Positions 43,733 through 64,000 of a DNA stretch of 64,000 nt are shown here, one piece after another. Position numbers and translations under genes: made by a program. The stretch is from Escherichia coli (GTDB lineage: Bacteria; Pseudomonadota; Gammaproteobacteria; Enterobacterales; Enterobacteriaceae). Position 1 is the first letter of the stretch, and each line of letters starts with the position of its first letter. Location: assembly GCF_013122565.1 (NCBI RefSeq), contig NZ_CP053258.1. One strand, given 5' to 3'. The notes under the pieces are model-generated. The model saw nothing but the letters and a program-made list of their open reading frames with translations. It was not told the origin of the DNA and ran no database searches.

Positions 43733-43808
43733 TGGTGCCGATAAGAGGAGTCGAACCTCCGACCTTCGCATTACGAATGCGCTGCTCTACCAACTGAGCT
43801 ATATCGGC
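43733..43808 (-). tRNA. thrW: tRNA-Thr (anticodon CGU)
   Basis: Minus strand GCCGATATAGCTCAGTTGGTAGAGCAGCGCATTCGTAATGCGAAGGTCGGAGGTTCGACTCCTCTTATCGGCACCA; full cloverleaf, anticodon loop TTCGTAA, encoded CCA. Confidence 0.92.
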
Positions 43809-58304: not shown

Positions 58305-59054
58305 TTACAAAATCGTCTCTTCCGTCAAAATCCGCCGCGCGCCTAAAAAATGATCCTGCCAGAAAGGTTCAGCTAATCGGCTTATCCGAATGGTTTCGCC
58401 GGTACGTGGTGACTCGATAAACTGACCGTCTCCCAGATACACCCCCATATGATCGGCTATCTCGCGGCTGTGAATATGGAAAAACAGCAAATCTCCCCGG
58501 CGCAGGTCGTTATTCGCCACAATCGTTGCCCGACGGTAGTGATACATCTCATTAGCCGTGCGCGGGAGTTTCGCCTCGAGGATCTTGTTGTAGGCATAAA
58601 AAACCAACCCGCTACAGTCGAAGCCTTGATCGGGCCGTGTGCCGCCCCAGACGTAAGGCTTGCCAAGCTGCTGCTCCAGGCGGTGGATCGCCACTTCGGT
58701 GATGTTATGCAGGTGATCGCTGCTTAAAAAGTGGTTGTTTTCCGCCAGCGCCTGCCAGCGTCTGTCACTCGCCTTGAGCGGTGCAGGAAACCATTCTGGA
58801 TGCTGTTTTATCTGCTCCCGGTTGTGCTGGCGCAGCGCCCTTCTGCTTTCGGCATTGCCTTCCACAATATAGCTGGCCTGTTTTTTCAGATGGGTTTGGT
58901 ACTGTTTTAATAACCGCGCACGGTTTTGCATCCGCTGGCGGGCGGCGTAGCTGAAAGAGATGTGTGATGTGGTGGCGCTGGCAAATGAAGAAAACGGCAA
59001 GCAAAGCAACAGTAATCCCGACAACACAAAGGATGGAATCGACGGCAAGGACAT
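58305..59054 (-). CDS. yafL: NlpC/P60-family lipoprotein YafL
   Basis: Start at MSLPSIPSFVLSGLLLLCLPFSS (249 aa); NlpC/P60 catalytic Cys region GFDCSGLVFYAY. Confidence 0.85.
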   Translation of the reverse strand: MSLPSIPSFVLSGLLLLCLPFSSFASATTSHISFSYAARQRMQNRARLLKQYQTHLKKQASYIVEGNAESRRALRQHNREQIKQHPEWFPAPLKASDRRWQALAENNHFLSSDHLHNITEVAIHRLEQQLGKPYVWGGTRPDQGFDCSGLVFYAYNKILEAKLPRTANEMYHYRRATIVANNDLRRGDLLFFHIHSREIADHMGVYLGDGQFIESPRTGETIRISRLAEPFWQDHFLGARRILTEETIL

Positions 59055-59231
59055 ACTCAATAATGGCTGGTCATGCTTTAATGTTGCAGTGTATCCCGGA
59101 TCGTTTCTGAACAAACTTAATAAACCATTATTATAAAATTAACAGATATATTTCAGTGGATTATGTAAATACATCAGTTTATTAAATTGCTCATGAATTG
59201 CCGCTGTTGCTCAATTGAGCTACAATTCAAG

Positions 59232-59247
59232 CTGAATATATATACAG
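59232..59247 (+). promoter_or_regulatory. LexA box of dinJ-yafQ promoter
   Basis: CTGAATATATATACAG (CTG-N10-CAG) about 17 nt upstream of dinJ start. Confidence 0.75.
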
Positions 59248-59263
59248 CACAGGAGATACCCCA

Positions 59264-59524
59264 ATGGCTGCTAACGCATTTGTTCGCGCCCGAATCGATG
59301 AGGATTTGAAGAATCAGGCGGCGGACGTACTGGCCGGGATGGGGCTGACCATCTCTGACCTGGTTCGCATAACCCTCACAAAGGTCGCGCGTGAAAAGGC
59401 ATTGCCGTTTGATTTACGCGAGCCTAATCAATTAACTATTCAATCAATCAAAAACAGCGAAGCTGGCGTTGGTGTTCATAAGGCCAAAGACGCCGATGAT
59501 TTATTTGATAAATTAGGAATTTAA
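59264..59524 (+). CDS. dinJ: antitoxin DinJ
   Basis: 86-aa ORF MAANAFVRARIDEDLKNQAADVLAGMGLTISDLVRITLTKVAREKALPFDL... Confidence 0.93.
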   Translation: MAANAFVRARIDEDLKNQAADVLAGMGLTISDLVRITLTKVAREKALPFDLREPNQLTIQSIKNSEAGVGVHKAKDADDLFDKLGI

Positions 59525-59526
59525 AT

Positions 59527-59805
59527 ATGATTCAAAGGGATATTGAATACTCGGGACAATTTTCAAAGGATGTAAAACTTGCACAAAAGCGTCATAAGGA
59601 TATGAATAAATTGAAATATCTTATGACGCTTCTTATCAATAATACTTTACCGCTTCCAGCTGTTTATAAAGACCACCCGCTGCAAGGTTCATGGAAAGGT
59701 TATCGCGATGCTCATGTCGAACCGGACTGGATCCTGATTTACAAACTTACCGATAAACTTTTACGATTTGAGAGAACTGGAACTCACGCGGCGCTCTTTG
59801 GGTAA
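59527..59805 (+). CDS. yafQ: mRNA interferase toxin YafQ (RelE family)
   Basis: 92-aa ORF MIQRDIEYSGQFSKDVKLAQKRHKDMNKLKYLMTLLINNTLPLPAVYKDHPLQG... Confidence 0.93.
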   Translation: MIQRDIEYSGQFSKDVKLAQKRHKDMNKLKYLMTLLINNTLPLPAVYKDHPLQGSWKGYRDAHVEPDWILIYKLTDKLLRFERTGTHAALFG

Positions 59806-59960
59806 AGCCCGCTTCCGATGAAATTTGTAAACCCTGCGCCGACAGGCTTGCGTAAAACTCTTTTGGTGATAATGTGAGCCTTCCAAATCCAGACTATTCC
59901 GATTTGGGATCTATTTTGCCGTCCTGGCGTGTGTAACCGTTTTATCAAGGAATAAGCAGT

Positions 59961-60701
59961 ATGCGTAAAATCGCATTAATTCTTGCGATGTTGTTGATCC
60001 CGTGCGTTTCGTTTGCCGGTTTGCTGGGCAGCAGTAGCTCGACCACGCCAGTGAGCAAAGAGTATAAGCAGCAGTTGATGGGATCCCCTGTCTACATCCA
60101 GATCTTCAAGGAAGAACGTACGCTCGATCTCTACGTCAAAATGGGCGAGCAATATCAACTGCTCGACAGCTATAAAATCTGTAAATATTCCGGCGGCTTA
60201 GGGCCAAAACAGCGTCAGGGCGATTTCAAAAGCCCGGAAGGGTTTTATAGCGTCCAGCGTAATCAGTTAAAACCAGACAGCCGTTACTACAAAGCGATTA
60301 ATATTGGTTTCCCCAATGCCTATGACCGTGCGCATGGTTATGAAGGGAAATACCTGATGATCCACGGCGATTGTGTTTCCATCGGCTGCTACGCGATGAC
60401 CAATCAGGGTATTGATGAGATCTTCCAGTTCGTTACTGGTGCGCTGGTGTTTGGTCAGTCAAGTGTGCAGGTGAGTATTTACCCGTTCCGCATGACCGAC
60501 GCCAACATGCAGCGCCATAAATATTCCAACTTTAAGGACTTCTGGGAGCAACTGAAGCCGGGTTATGACTACTTTGAGCAAACCCGTAAGCCACCGACCG
60601 TTTCTGTGGTCAATGGTCGTTACGTGGTCAGCAAGCCGTTAAGCCACGAAGTTGTGCAGCCACAACTGGCATCAAACTACACGCTCCCCGAGGCAAAATA
60701 A
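59961..60701 (+). CDS. yafK: L,D-transpeptidase-fold protein YafK
   Basis: 246-aa ORF with signal peptide [19 protein letters not shown]; catalytic-region motif [12 protein letters not shown]. Confidence 0.88.
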
Positions 60702-61439
60702 GCGCCATTCGCCTGGCATAATCTTTTGCCAGGTTTCATTGCCCGTCAGCGGCTGTGTCGCAATCACCGTGACCACATCATTCGGTGTGGTCTGCGAGCT
60801 GAAGTCGATTTCCACATCCTGATCCAGCAACGTTGCCACGCCAAACGGTGCGCGGCGGGTGATCCAGTGCAGATTGGTCGAGCAATACGCCATTACATAG
60901 CGCCCATCCGAAAGCAGCATGTTGAAAACGCCCTTCTGCCGCAGTTCGTCCGCCAGTGAAGCGATATATTTAAACACTGCTGCCATGTTGCCCGGCGTGC
61001 GCGGGTAACGCTGCGTTAATTTATGCAGCAGCCAGCAGAAGGCTTTTTCGCTGTCGGTTTCACCGACCGGGCGGAAGTTGCCGGTTTCCAGTGATTTGTA
61101 GCCCGTCAGTTGTCCGTTATGGGCATAAGTCCAGTTACGCCCCCATAACTCGCGGGTAAATGGGTGAGTATTTTCCAGCGCCACCTCGCCCCGATTAGCC
61201 TGGCGAATATGAGCCACCACCGAACAGGATTTTATCGGGTAGTCCTGGACAAGTTTGGCGATGGGGGAATTAAAGCTGGGTTGTGGATCTTTAAATGTGC
61301 GACAGCCTTTACCTTCGTAAAAGGTAATGCCCCAGCCATCTTTATGTGGCCCGGTTCCACCACCACGCTGTACAAGTCCGGTGAAACTAAAGCAGATATC
61401 GGTAGGGACGTTGGCGCTCATCCCGAGCAATTCGCACAT
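60672..61439 (-). CDS. yafJ: class II glutamine amidotransferase YafJ
   Basis: Start at [19 protein letters not shown] (255 aa; N-terminal Cys nucleophile after Met); 30-nt convergent overlap with yafK. Confidence 0.85.
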
Positions 61440-61501
61440 GGGTAACCTCCACAACAGCGGGAGCGCATGGCCCCCGGCGAAGATTGATTTAAGAATTTTC
61501 A

Positions 61502-61640
61502 GGTCGGATGCGGCGTGAACGCATTATTCGGCCTTCGGTTCGCGTACAGATTTGTAGGCATGATAAGACGCGTCAGCGTCGCATCAGGCATCAGCGCACA
61601 AATGCTGGATGCGGCGTAAACGCCTTATCCGGCCTACGCC
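61502..61640. repeat. BIME (three REP units) between yafJ and gmhA
   Basis: ggtcggatgcggcgtgaacgc..., gtaggcatgataagacgcgtcagcgtcgcatcaggca, tgctggatgcggcgtaaacgccttatccggcctacgcc. Confidence 0.75.
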
Positions 61641-61644
61641 AGAC

Positions 61645-62223
61645 TTACTTAACCATCTCTTTTTCAATTAACTGGATCAGGATATGGATCACTTTAATGT
61701 GGATCTCCTGAATGCGGTCGGCATAACCAAAGTGCGGAACGCGAATTTCGATATCCGCCGTGCCAGCCATTTTGCCGCCGTCTTTACCGGTCAGGGTGAT
61801 CACTTTCATCCCCTTCTCACGCGCCGCTGCGATCGCTTTGATCACGTTTGCAGAGTTACCGGAAGTGGAGATCCCCAGCAGTACATCGCCTTCGCGACCT
61901 ACCGCTTCAACGTAACGGGAGAAAATATCATTGAAACCGAAATCATTACCGACGCAGGAAATATGACTAACGTCAGAAATAGCAATCGCCGGGTAGCCCG
62001 GACGGTTTTCACGGTAGCGACCGGTCAACTCTTCGGCAAAGTGCATGGCGTCGCAATGGGAGCCGCCGTTGCCGCAGGAAAGCACTTTACCACCGGCTTT
62101 AAAGCTGTCTGCTAACAGGACCGCCGCGCGCTGAATGGCGTGAATATTGGCGTCATCTTTTAAAAAGTTAGCCAGCGTTTCCGCCGCTTCGTTCAGTTCG
62201 TTACGAATAAGATCCTGGTACAT
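61645..62223 (-). CDS. gmhA: phosphoheptose isomerase
   Basis: Start at [20 protein letters not shown] (192 aa); ORF track starts 54 codons upstream. Confidence 0.92.
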
Positions 62224-62462
62224 GAGGATATCCTTCAGCATAAATGTAATAGACAAAATGCAGTGTACCGGATACCGCCAAAAGCGAGAAGTACGGGCAG
62301 GTGCTATGACCAGGACTTTTTGACCTGAAGTGCGGATAAAAACAGCAACAATGTGAGCTTTGTTGTAATTATATTGTAAACACATTGCTAAATGTTTTTA
62401 CATCCACTACAACCATATCATCACAAGTGGTCAGACCTCCTACAAGTAAGGGGCTTTTCGTT

Positions 62463-64000
62463 ATGATGATTTTGAGTATTCTCGCTACGGTTGTCCTGCT
62501 CGGCGCGTTGTTCTATCACCGCGTGAGCTTATTTATCAGCAGTCTGATTTTGCTCGCCTGGACAGCCGCCCTCGGCGTTGCTGGTCTGTGGTCGGCGTGG
62601 GTACTGGTGCCTCTGGCCATTATCCTCGTGCCATTTAACTTTGCGCCTATGCGTAAGTCGATGATTTCCGCGCCGGTATTTCGCGGTTTCCGTAAGGTGA
62701 TGCCGCCGATGTCGCGCACTGAGAAAGAAGCGATTGATGCGGGCACCACCTGGTGGGAGGGCGACTTGTTCCAGGGCAAGCCGGACTGGAAAAAGCTGCA
62801 TAACTATCCGCAGCCGCGCCTGACGGCTGAAGAGCAAGCGTTTCTCGACGGCCCGGTAGAAGAAGCCTGCCGGATGGCGAATGATTTCCAGATCACCCAT
62901 GAACTGGCGGATCTGCCGCCAGAGTTGTGGGCGTACCTTAAAGAGCATCGCTTCTTCGCGATGATCATCAAAAAAGAGTACGGCGGACTGGAGTTCTCGG
63001 CTTATGCCCAGTCTCGTGTGCTGCAAAAACTCTCCGGCGTGAGCGGGATCCTGGCGATTACCGTCGGCGTGCCGAACTCATTAGGCCCGGGCGAGCTACT
63101 GCAACATTACGGCACTGATGAGCAGAAAAATCACTATCTGCCGCGTCTGGCGCGTGGTCAGGAGATCCCTTGCTTTGCACTGACCAGCCCGGAAGCGGGT
63201 TCCGATGCGGGCGCGATTCCGGACAACGGGATTGTCTGCATGGGTGAATGGCAGGGCCAGCAGGTGCTGGGGATGCGTCTGACCTGGAACAAACGCTACA
63301 TTACGCTGGCACCGATTGCGACTGTGCTTGGGCTGGCGTTTAAACTCTCCGACCCGGAAAAATTGCTGGGTGGTGCAGAAGATTTAGGTATTACCTGTGC
63401 GCTGATCCCGACCACCACGCCGGGCGTGGAAATTGGTCGTCGCCACTTCCCGCTGAATGTGCCGTTCCAGAACGGACCGACGCGCGGTAAAGATGTCTTC
63501 GTACCGATCGACTACATTATCGGCGGGCCGAAAATGGCCGGGCAAGGCTGGCGGATGCTGGTGGAGTGCCTCTCGGTGGGCCGCGGCATCACCCTGCCTT
63601 CCAACTCAACCGGCGGCGTGAAATCGGTAGCGCTGGCAACCGGCGCGTATGCGCACATTCGCCGTCAGTTCAAAATCTCTATTGGTAAGATGGAAGGGAT
63701 TGAAGAACCGCTGGCGCGTATTGCCGGTAATGCCTATGTGATGGATGCTGCGGCGTCGCTGATTACCTACGGCATTATGCTCGGCGAAAAACCTGCCGTG
63801 CTGTCGGCTATCGTTAAGTATCACTGTACCCACCGCGGGCAGCAGTCGATTATTGATGCGATGGATATCACTGGTGGTAAAGGCATTATGCTCGGGCAAA
63901 GCAACTTCCTGGCCCGTGCTTACCAGGGCGCACCGATTGCCATCACCGTTGAAGGGGCTAACATTCTGACCCGCAGCATGATGATCTTCGGCCAGGGGGC
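62463..64000 (+). CDS. fadE: acyl-CoA dehydrogenase FadE, partial (3' end beyond window)
   Basis: ATG at 62463; [43 protein letters not shown]...; open to the window edge, so absent from the ORF track. Confidence 0.9.

Follow-up and report, generated by a model that had tools for sequence, protein, structure and literature searches.

The Convergent Genes yafK (dpaA) and yafJ Share a Conserved 30-Nucleotide Coding Overlap From Escherichia to Photorhabdus, With Rho-Dependent Read-Through in Escherichia coli K-12

Introduction

Where does a messenger RNA end when the coding sequence that it carries finishes inside a gene read from the other strand? This question is raised by yafK (also known as dpaA or ldtF) and yafJ of Escherichia coli, two genes that converge in the 64,000-nucleotide stretch of DNA analysed here (RefSeq assembly GCF_013122565.1, contig NZ_CP053258.1), hereafter the window. 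A sequence-only reading of the window held that the coding ends of yafK, on the plus strand, and yafJ, on the minus strand, overlap by 30 nt, that this leaves no room for separate terminators, and that convergent transcription must collide or read through. In the following, the overlap is traced through Enterobacterales and set beside published transcript data. Taken together, the data make it likely that this is a genuine ancient tail-to-tail overlap, which arose by stop loss and was locked in by dual coding, with read-through transcripts that are ended by Rho and RNA duplexes that are a tolerated by-product.

Materials and Methods

The locus was taken from 80 species-level Enterobacteriaceae genomes, in which both stop codons were placed by extending tblastn matches; entropies were computed on an ungapped alignment of 78 species. 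Distant relatives of YafK were found by protein searches, and their contigs were then inspected. The published transcript data are those of K-12 MG1655; the DNA analysed here belongs to another E. coli strain, which is ~98% identical in this region. The K-12 orientation is reversed relative to the window, such that the window coordinate equals 305766 minus the K-12 coordinate. The duplexes of Huang 2020 (Table S3) were placed on the window by sequence.

Two Protein-Coding Genes With a Common Coding End

According to the open reading frame list, yafK/dpaA (plus strand, 59961-60701) and yafJ (minus strand, 60672-61439) have positions 60672-60701 in common, exactly 30 nt (Table 1). Within this segment, the codon registers are antiparallel, with position 2 opposite position 2. 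The plus strand reads TCA AAC TAC ACG CTC CCC GAG GCA AAA TAA (S N Y T L P E A K stop), and the minus strand reads TTA TTT TGC CTC GGG GAG CGT GTA GTT TGA (L F C L G E R V V stop). The same overlap is found in the RefSeq annotation of K-12 XL1-Blue (dpaA, 245065-245805; yafJ, 244327-245094) and in that of the closest E. coli match. The names, strands, coordinates and 30-nt length given by the sequence-only reading thus agree with both the open reading frame list and the RefSeq annotation.

Table 1. Features at and around the yafK-yafJ junction, in window coordinates.
Feature	Position	Strand	Details
yafK/dpaA (ldtF) coding sequence	59961..60701	+	246 aa; open reading frame, RefSeq annotation, PDB 8IKR
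yafJ coding sequence	60672..61439	-	255 aa; open reading frame, translation, RefSeq annotation
Dual-coding overlap	60672..60701	both	Last 9 codons and stop of each gene, phase 123:321
yafJ stop TGA	60672..60674	-	Complement of YafK Ser238 codon TCA
yafK stop TAA (TAG in ~1/3 of species)	60699..60701	+	Complement of YafJ Leu247 codon TTA (CTA)
RNase III 21-nt duplexes with 2-nt overhangs	60676..60699	both	Huang 2020 Table S3 'yafJ yafK', K-12 245066-245090
Candidate weak intrinsic terminator of yafK	60711..60740	+	Inside yafJ codons 234-243
Rho termination region, yafK direction	~60991	+	K-12 244775(-), antisense to yafJ, score 6.55, p = 2.8e-17 (Adams 2021, PMC7815308)
Rho termination region, yafJ direction	~60161	-	K-12 245605(+), antisense to yafK, score 6.11, p = 3.0e-16 (Adams 2021, PMC7815308)
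gmhA (lpcA)	61645..62223	-	Upstream of yafJ, same strand; RefSeq annotation

Both partners are genuine protein-coding genes, and the pair is a convergent overlap. In each gene, the entropy at the three codon positions follows a coding pattern (0.16-0.18, 0.09-0.11 and 0.98, respectively). The product of yafK, DpaA, is a periplasmic amidase of the YkuD fold that detaches Braun's lipoprotein from peptidoglycan (PMC10653827), and PDB entry 8IKR matches its residues 20-246. YafJ can be assigned by homology to the class II (Ntn, Cys2) glutamine amidotransferase-like proteins: its orthologues match Pfam GATase_4, and a Pseudomonas aeruginosa homologue (PDB 1TE5) aligns to residues 1-252 of its 255 residues (E = 2e-100), with GEWxL..GE conserved. 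The yafJ start codon is the ATG at 61439, with a Shine-Dalgarno sequence (GGAGG) in front of it.

Megablast located the yafK-yafJ segment in 5423 of 5426 complete E. coli genomes at an identity of at least 95.8%. Over positions 59900-61500, the window is 99.0% identical to its best match among these 5426 genomes, and ~98% identical to K-12. Fifteen matches of this region lie on plasmid-typed records, which are possibly F-prime episomes carrying this part of the chromosome.

Conservation and Age of the Overlap

At the first tblastn pass, the overlap measured exactly 30 nt in 81 of 82 Enterobacteriaceae loci. The one apparent exception, Citrobacter koseri NCTC10786, did not hold up, as its yafJ is fragmented and the 3' fragment retains an identical 30-nt overlap. 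At this locus (L035, 3712-5323), both yafJ and gmhA are fragmented; these may be pseudogenes, or the breaks may be long-read indel errors. The 30-nt overlap, together with gmhA and yafJ running convergent with yafK, was also present in Cronobacter, Shimwellia, Pantoea, Mangrovibacter, Photorhabdus and one metagenomic locus, with YafK identities as low as 58% in the metagenomic locus and 53% in the Photorhabdus locus. In all 89 of 89 loci, the 30-mer has exactly one stop at each end, at identical positions from Escherichia to Photorhabdus. A YafK homologue of 52% identity found elsewhere (P0141) has different neighbouring genes; thus, the adjacency of yafK and yafJ appears to be an Enterobacterales feature. 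The presumed earlier state, with yafK and yafJ adjacent and not overlapping, was not found among the loci examined.

Judged from these comparisons, the conservation of the overlap goes far beyond chance, and the overlap is old and fixed, being neither a strain-specific mutation nor an artefact of sequencing or annotation. An earlier stop in either gene, which would dissolve the overlap, is excluded by the conservation in thousands of genomes and in the 89 loci. The chance that the genes do not truly overlap, one of the stops having been produced by an error in sequencing or annotation, is negligible: both stops keep the same place across 89 independent loci and also in RefSeq, and full-length DpaA (residues 20-246) was expressed for crystallography (PMC10653827).

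Constraint Within the Shared Codons

Inside the overlap, the mean third-position entropy is 0.28 for yafK and 0.40 for yafJ, compared with ~0.98 in the rest of both genes, i.e., synonymous variation is ~2.5- to 3.5-fold lower. The constraint is most visible at the two stop codons. Leu247 of YafJ, which lies opposite the yafK stop, is encoded by TTA or CTA in 78 of 78 species, as against 0-30% at 20 other conserved leucine columns of yafJ. Likewise, Ser238 of YafK, opposite the yafJ stop, is TCA in 78 of 78 species, as against 0-44% at 14 other conserved serine columns. The yafK stop itself is divided between TAA and TAG (53:25 among the 78 species), a switch that is silent in both genes; this alternation indicates that the site is able to mutate. 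Each stop is thus preserved in the alignment as a sense codon that the partner gene otherwise seldom uses.

Because each stop is at the same time a sense codon of the other gene, the arrangement is locked in. [quoted passage not shown] Dual-coding lock-in of this kind would be what holds the overlap in place; the conservation is observed, and the mechanism is the one that we infer from it. Strict conservation would be expected equally under selection for a regulatory overlap, such that regarding the duplexes described below as a by-product is a judgement of what is most likely.

The two tails are not constrained to the same degree. Among distinct 30-mers, the pairwise identity is 0.80 for the YafJ tail, with mostly V/I and E/D exchanges, vs 0.71 for the YafK tail, whose exchanges include P to A, T or S and E to K or Q. 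In Pantoea, for example, Phe248 of YafJ is retained through a change from TTT to TTC, while the last residue of YafK changes from K to E.

Probable Origin by Loss of a yafK Stop

Which of the two genes grew into the other? A search of 1.8 billion representative proteins returned distant YafK homologues that align only to about residue 221-231, and several single-domain homologues (P0176, P0177, P0150, P0194 and P0192) end 0-4 residues past the match. Structural work on DpaA gives a similar boundary: the crystal was obtained only after trimming with V8 protease, and the model ends at residue 229 in chain A and 224 in chain B (PMC10653827). Thus, the nine residues encoded by the overlap (238-246) lie outside the ordered domain. 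These comparisons suggest that the YafK tail is a lineage-specific addition and yafK the younger partner in the overlap.

In the history that fits these data, the C-terminus of YafJ would be ancestral and yafK the later extender. An ancestral yafK stop ~20 codons earlier would have been lost, with translation reading on to the next in-frame stop inside yafJ, the complement of the Leu247 codon. Most likely, yafK gained its tail of ~20 residues in this way. A route through stop-codon mutation has been found sufficient for the convergent overlaps of E. coli (Lillo & Krakauer 2007, PMC2174442), and loss of the yafK stop, which matches this route, is the simplest history.

Read-Through and RNA Duplexes in K-12

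Published genome-wide data allow the fate of the two transcripts to be followed in K-12. Adams 2021 (PMC7815308) reported a Rho termination region ~290 nt past the yafK stop and another ~510 nt past the yafJ stop, positions that have a resolution of hundreds of nucleotides, limited by 800-nt windows (PMC7815308). Upon treatment with bicyclomycin, reads downstream of yafK rose from 20 to 289 (Adams 2021, PMC7815308). On both strands, read-through increases when Rho is inhibited; termination is thus Rho-dependent in both directions. Past both stops, there are 80-nt stretches with raw C/G ratios of 1.3-1.7, modest values that are compatible with Rho loading but not decisive.

Both genes are also covered by antisense RNA. 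In the wild type, sense and antisense levels are 71.3 and 17.4 RPM for yafJ and 130.2 and 12.0 RPM for yafK, and the antisense levels of neighbouring genes are 0.25-2.4 RPM (Huang 2020, PMC7373196). Most simply, the antisense RNAs would be 3' extensions of the two mRNAs and not products of internal antisense promoters. Double-stranded RNA captured with p19 amounts to 145-189 RPM for yafJ and 187-609 RPM for yafK vs 1-19 RPM for yafQ and dinJ, and the duplexes listed under 'yafJ yafK' in Table S3, with read counts of 1028/1027 and 756/1653, fall within the overlap (Huang 2020, PMC7373196). The transcripts thus overlap in vivo and yield double-stranded RNA processed by RNase III in published K-12 data, two properties that characterize convergent excludons. 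In K-12, both strands are thus transcribed through the overlap, terminated by Rho farther on and paired into substrates of RNase III, which cuts the duplex within the overlap. Neither mRNA can end before it has entered the partner gene; each would probably continue, untranslated and antisense, for at most a few hundred nucleotides until Rho ends it.

Collision of RNA polymerases requires that both genes be transcribed simultaneously on the same DNA molecule. Of the alternative posed by the sequence-only reading, that transcription must collide or read through, the second half is supported in MG1655 by the Rho regions, the antisense reads and the duplexes; a collision is possible, and both genes are modestly expressed (71 and 130 RPM).

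A more far-reaching reading of the same duplexes is that the overlap was selected as a functional convergent excludon, in which the gmhA-yafJ unit and dpaA are coupled reciprocally through RNase III, transcriptional interference or both. The pair does appear among the 165 convergent excludons detected in at least 50% of 58 MG1655 transcriptomes (ExcludonFinder 2025, PMC12288877). RNase III duplexes lie inside the overlap itself, the double-stranded RNA (145-609 RPM) stands far above that of yafQ and dinJ, and the gene order, with gmhA and yafJ facing yafK, is kept from Escherichia to Photorhabdus. In addition, gmhA and dpaA both have to do with the outer membrane, the one through LPS heptose synthesis and the other through the detachment of Lpp, a connection drawn in the present analysis. 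Neither anticorrelated expression nor a phenotype was found. Moreover, sense RNA is not consistently higher when RNase III is missing: compared with the wild type, the two rnc mutants have 34 and 45 vs 71 RPM for yafJ and 111 and 178 vs 130 RPM for yafK (Huang 2020, PMC7373196, Table S1c). Dual-coding lock-in alone accounts for the conservation, and we regard a selected excludon as unlikely. The narrower proposal that the exact length of 30 nt reflects selection for obligatory antisense coupling of the gmhA-yafJ unit with dpaA, over and above lock-in, is less probable still. If it were true, the RNase III cut would decide how stable the two mRNAs are relative to each other, and the release of Braun's lipoprotein from peptidoglycan would in this way be tied to LPS-core synthesis or to the activity of YafJ. 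The preferred reading remains an overlap held by dual coding, with Rho-ended read-through and tolerated duplexes.

Terminators at the Junction

The statement that there is no room for separate terminators can be examined on each strand in turn. A terminator can sit within the coding sequence of the partner gene. On the plus strand, a hairpin begins 10 nt past the yafK stop, with an 8-bp G+C-rich stem (60711-60718 paired with 60727-60734), an 8-nt loop and a UUCAUU tail; the predicted RNA fold of 60695-60745 has a free energy of -15.7 kcal/mol (z = -2.98). Pair counting across 76 distinct sequences found 96% of stem cells paired, compared with 12-50% when the 3' partner was slid. Shimwellia and Pantoea have a longer stem of 10 bp, and in Mangrovibacter the stem is formed anew by other bases. 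It is weakened or lost in Klebsiella and Raoultella relatives and is absent in L087 and Photorhabdus. The yafJ codons that form its arms, P242, G243 and T236, have low synonymous entropy. Two-sided covariation in the stem is almost nil, and the U-tract is short, interrupted and present on the plus strand only. A stem that is mostly invariant neither proves nor disproves RNA structure. RNAalifold gave no consensus structure for the region downstream of yafK, a consensus terminator scan of 59200-62500 returned nothing convincing at the junction and did not report the 60711-60740 hairpin, and an Rfam search of the whole window had no match at the junction. Both arms of the hairpin contain a Dcm site (CCTGG/CCAGG, at 60712-60716 and 60729-60733).

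It is conceivable that this embedded hairpin, and not Rho, mainly ends yafK, in which case the RNA overlap would span only ~40-70 nt and the Rho signal would be a minor leak. The stem and its UUUCAUU tail so close to the stop, the z-score, the pairing retained across sequences and lengthened or rebuilt in other genera, and the low synonymous variation at P242, G243 and T236 would all suit such a terminator. The failure of the consensus scan to detect it, the poor U-tract, the near lack of two-sided covariation and the decay of the stem in Klebsiella and Raoultella relatives, L087 and Photorhabdus would not. Furthermore, no Term-seq 3' end is listed at this position, and the rise from 20 to 289 reads under bicyclomycin indicates substantial read-through past the hairpin. 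We therefore consider termination mainly at the hairpin possible, though doubtful.

Lists of mapped 3' ends do not place either transcript end. Supplementary files 1 and 3 of Adams 2021 list no Term-seq 3' end for yafK or yafJ, the TERMITe supplements list no 3' end of these genes, and the SMRT-Cappable-seq supplements have no entry for either gene.

For yafJ, no conserved hairpin was found downstream of the stop, where third-position entropy is 0.88-1.47 and the fold of 60600-60700 on the minus strand has z = +0.8. Two minus-strand scan hits at 60718-60700 were discarded as yafJ terminators, as they are located upstream of the yafJ stop. A GUUGUG-GCUG-CACAAC hairpin just past the stop was likewise set aside; it is not conserved even within Escherichia, and the synonymous variation of the region is high. 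The claim of no room is thus too strong and only in part correct, given the candidate hairpin located 10 nt past the yafK stop, inside yafJ. Further along the plus strand, a terminator-like hairpin at 60999-61016 inside yafJ (GCGCGGGTAACGCTGCGT then TAATTTAT) lies within ~10 nt of the Rho region at ~60991.

The hairpin at 60711-60740 might instead act through the encounter of polymerases. Bidirectional termination driven by collision, in which converging polymerases pause at the hairpin of the overlap and dislodge each other, has been proposed for ynaJ-uspE and described as a class for convergent E. coli pairs (bioRxiv 10.1101/2022.10.23.513370), and a palindromic hairpin does adjoin the overlap here. 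This hairpin is upstream of the yafJ stop, however, and polymerases halted there would leave a truncated yafJ mRNA. Both strands display Rho-dependent read-through, not sharp Rho-independent ends, and the model applies best to highly expressed pairs (bioRxiv 10.1101/2022.10.23.513370), whereas yafK and yafJ are expressed modestly. Such a mechanism is thus very improbable at this locus, and Rho-ended read-through, the preferred reading, is the one carried forward below.

Neighborhood and Significance

Some of the transcription that enters yafJ probably originates at gmhA. The two genes are separated by only 23-90 nt in Cronobacter, Shimwellia, Pantoea, Mangrovibacter, Photorhabdus and the metagenomic locus, and are therefore probably co-transcribed there. 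In E. coli, the spacer is ~205 nt long and full of REP/BIME-like palindromes (61500-61640), which have an Rfam match to naRNA4 (RF02564) at 61557-61634 on the minus strand (74.5 bits).

On the other side, the type II toxin-antitoxin pair dinJ-yafQ (59264-59805, plus strand) immediately precedes yafK and has the same orientation. In Cronobacter, Shimwellia, Pantoea, Mangrovibacter and Photorhabdus, the equivalent site lacks this pair and is occupied by dinB or nqrA; hence, the pair looks like a later insertion beside a conserved yafK-yafJ-gmhA-fadE block. Farther out, the yafL (C40 peptidase) open reading frame at 58305-59114 on the minus strand has a TTG start and 269 aa, compared with 249 aa in K-12, the longer form being probably a mechanical open reading frame call. 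Rfam also placed one tRNA gene at 43736-43808 on the minus strand, which is unrelated to the overlap.

Much of what concerns this locus is already known: the overlap is in the standard annotation, and published genome-wide tables include the overlapping transcripts, their dependence on Rho and their cleavage by RNase III. What the present comparison modestly adds is that, from Escherichia to Photorhabdus, the overlap measures exactly 30 nt and each of its stops appears locked in place as a rare codon of the other gene. The finding is an ordinary one, of little importance beyond this locus. It illustrates cleanly the way in which such overlaps come to be fixed, with stops kept as the partner's rare sense codons throughout the history of an order. 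It is also of practical relevance to genome engineering, as the 30 nt cannot be recoded, nor either gene cleanly deleted, without altering the other gene: a full deletion of yafJ takes the last 9 codons and stop of DpaA, and a full deletion of dpaA truncates YafJ. Should the excludon reading prove true, the overlap would link two envelope functions.

Comparison With Known Systems

Bidirectional terminators (Ju et al. 2019, as cited in bioRxiv 10.1101/2022.10.23.513370) resemble the present case in that a hairpin lies close to where two convergent genes meet. They differ in that the U-rich tail is here on one strand only, the hairpin lies inside yafJ before its stop and termination is sensitive to Rho. 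On the minus strand, the hairpin (60711-60734), upstream of the yafJ stop, is followed by GAAUGGCG, which is not a U-tract; no Term-seq 3' ends are listed for either gene in Adams 2021, and bicyclomycin-sensitive read-through occurs on both strands. By these features, the locus does not qualify as a bidirectional intrinsic terminator. For arfA-mscL (PMC10070815), another E. coli convergent pair with a reported 3' antisense overlap, a regulatory effect has been reported, whereas none is reported for yafJ-dpaA.

Convergent excludons (PMC12288877, PMC7373196) share with this locus overlapping transcripts and RNase III duplexes, and yafJ-dpaA is itself listed among them. Most excludons overlap in their untranslated regions only, the mean intergenic distance in E. 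coli being 95 nt, whereas yafJ and dpaA overlap in coding sequence; an RNA overlap is thus unavoidable whenever both are transcribed. The excludon concept is defined by mutually exclusive expression; what yafJ-dpaA has in common with it are overlapping transcripts and duplexes, and the sense levels in the rnc mutants show no consistent rise.

The Rho termination of antisense RNA described by Adams 2021 (PMC7815308) is matched by bicyclomycin-sensitive regions on both strands, each inside the opposing gene; antisense regions form the largest class in that study (51.5%). For yafK and yafJ, the antisense RNAs are most simply seen as 3' extensions of the mRNAs, not as transcripts of dedicated antisense promoters.

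The pair belongs squarely among the convergent overlaps catalogued by Lillo & Krakauer 2007 (PMC2174442), who counted 58 in E. coli, with phase 123:321 accounting for ~1/3 of those longer than 4 nt, and predicted intrinsic terminators in 20% of the genes involved. In those pairs, as here, two genes read from opposite strands have their 3' coding ends in common, and 123:321 is the second commonest convergent phase. The length of 30 nt is near their mean overlap of 26 bp, an origin by stop mutation fits, and any terminators lie within the partner. The yafK-yafJ pair is thus no different in kind from these overlaps; what is added here is the depth and exactness of its conservation, from Escherichia to Photorhabdus.
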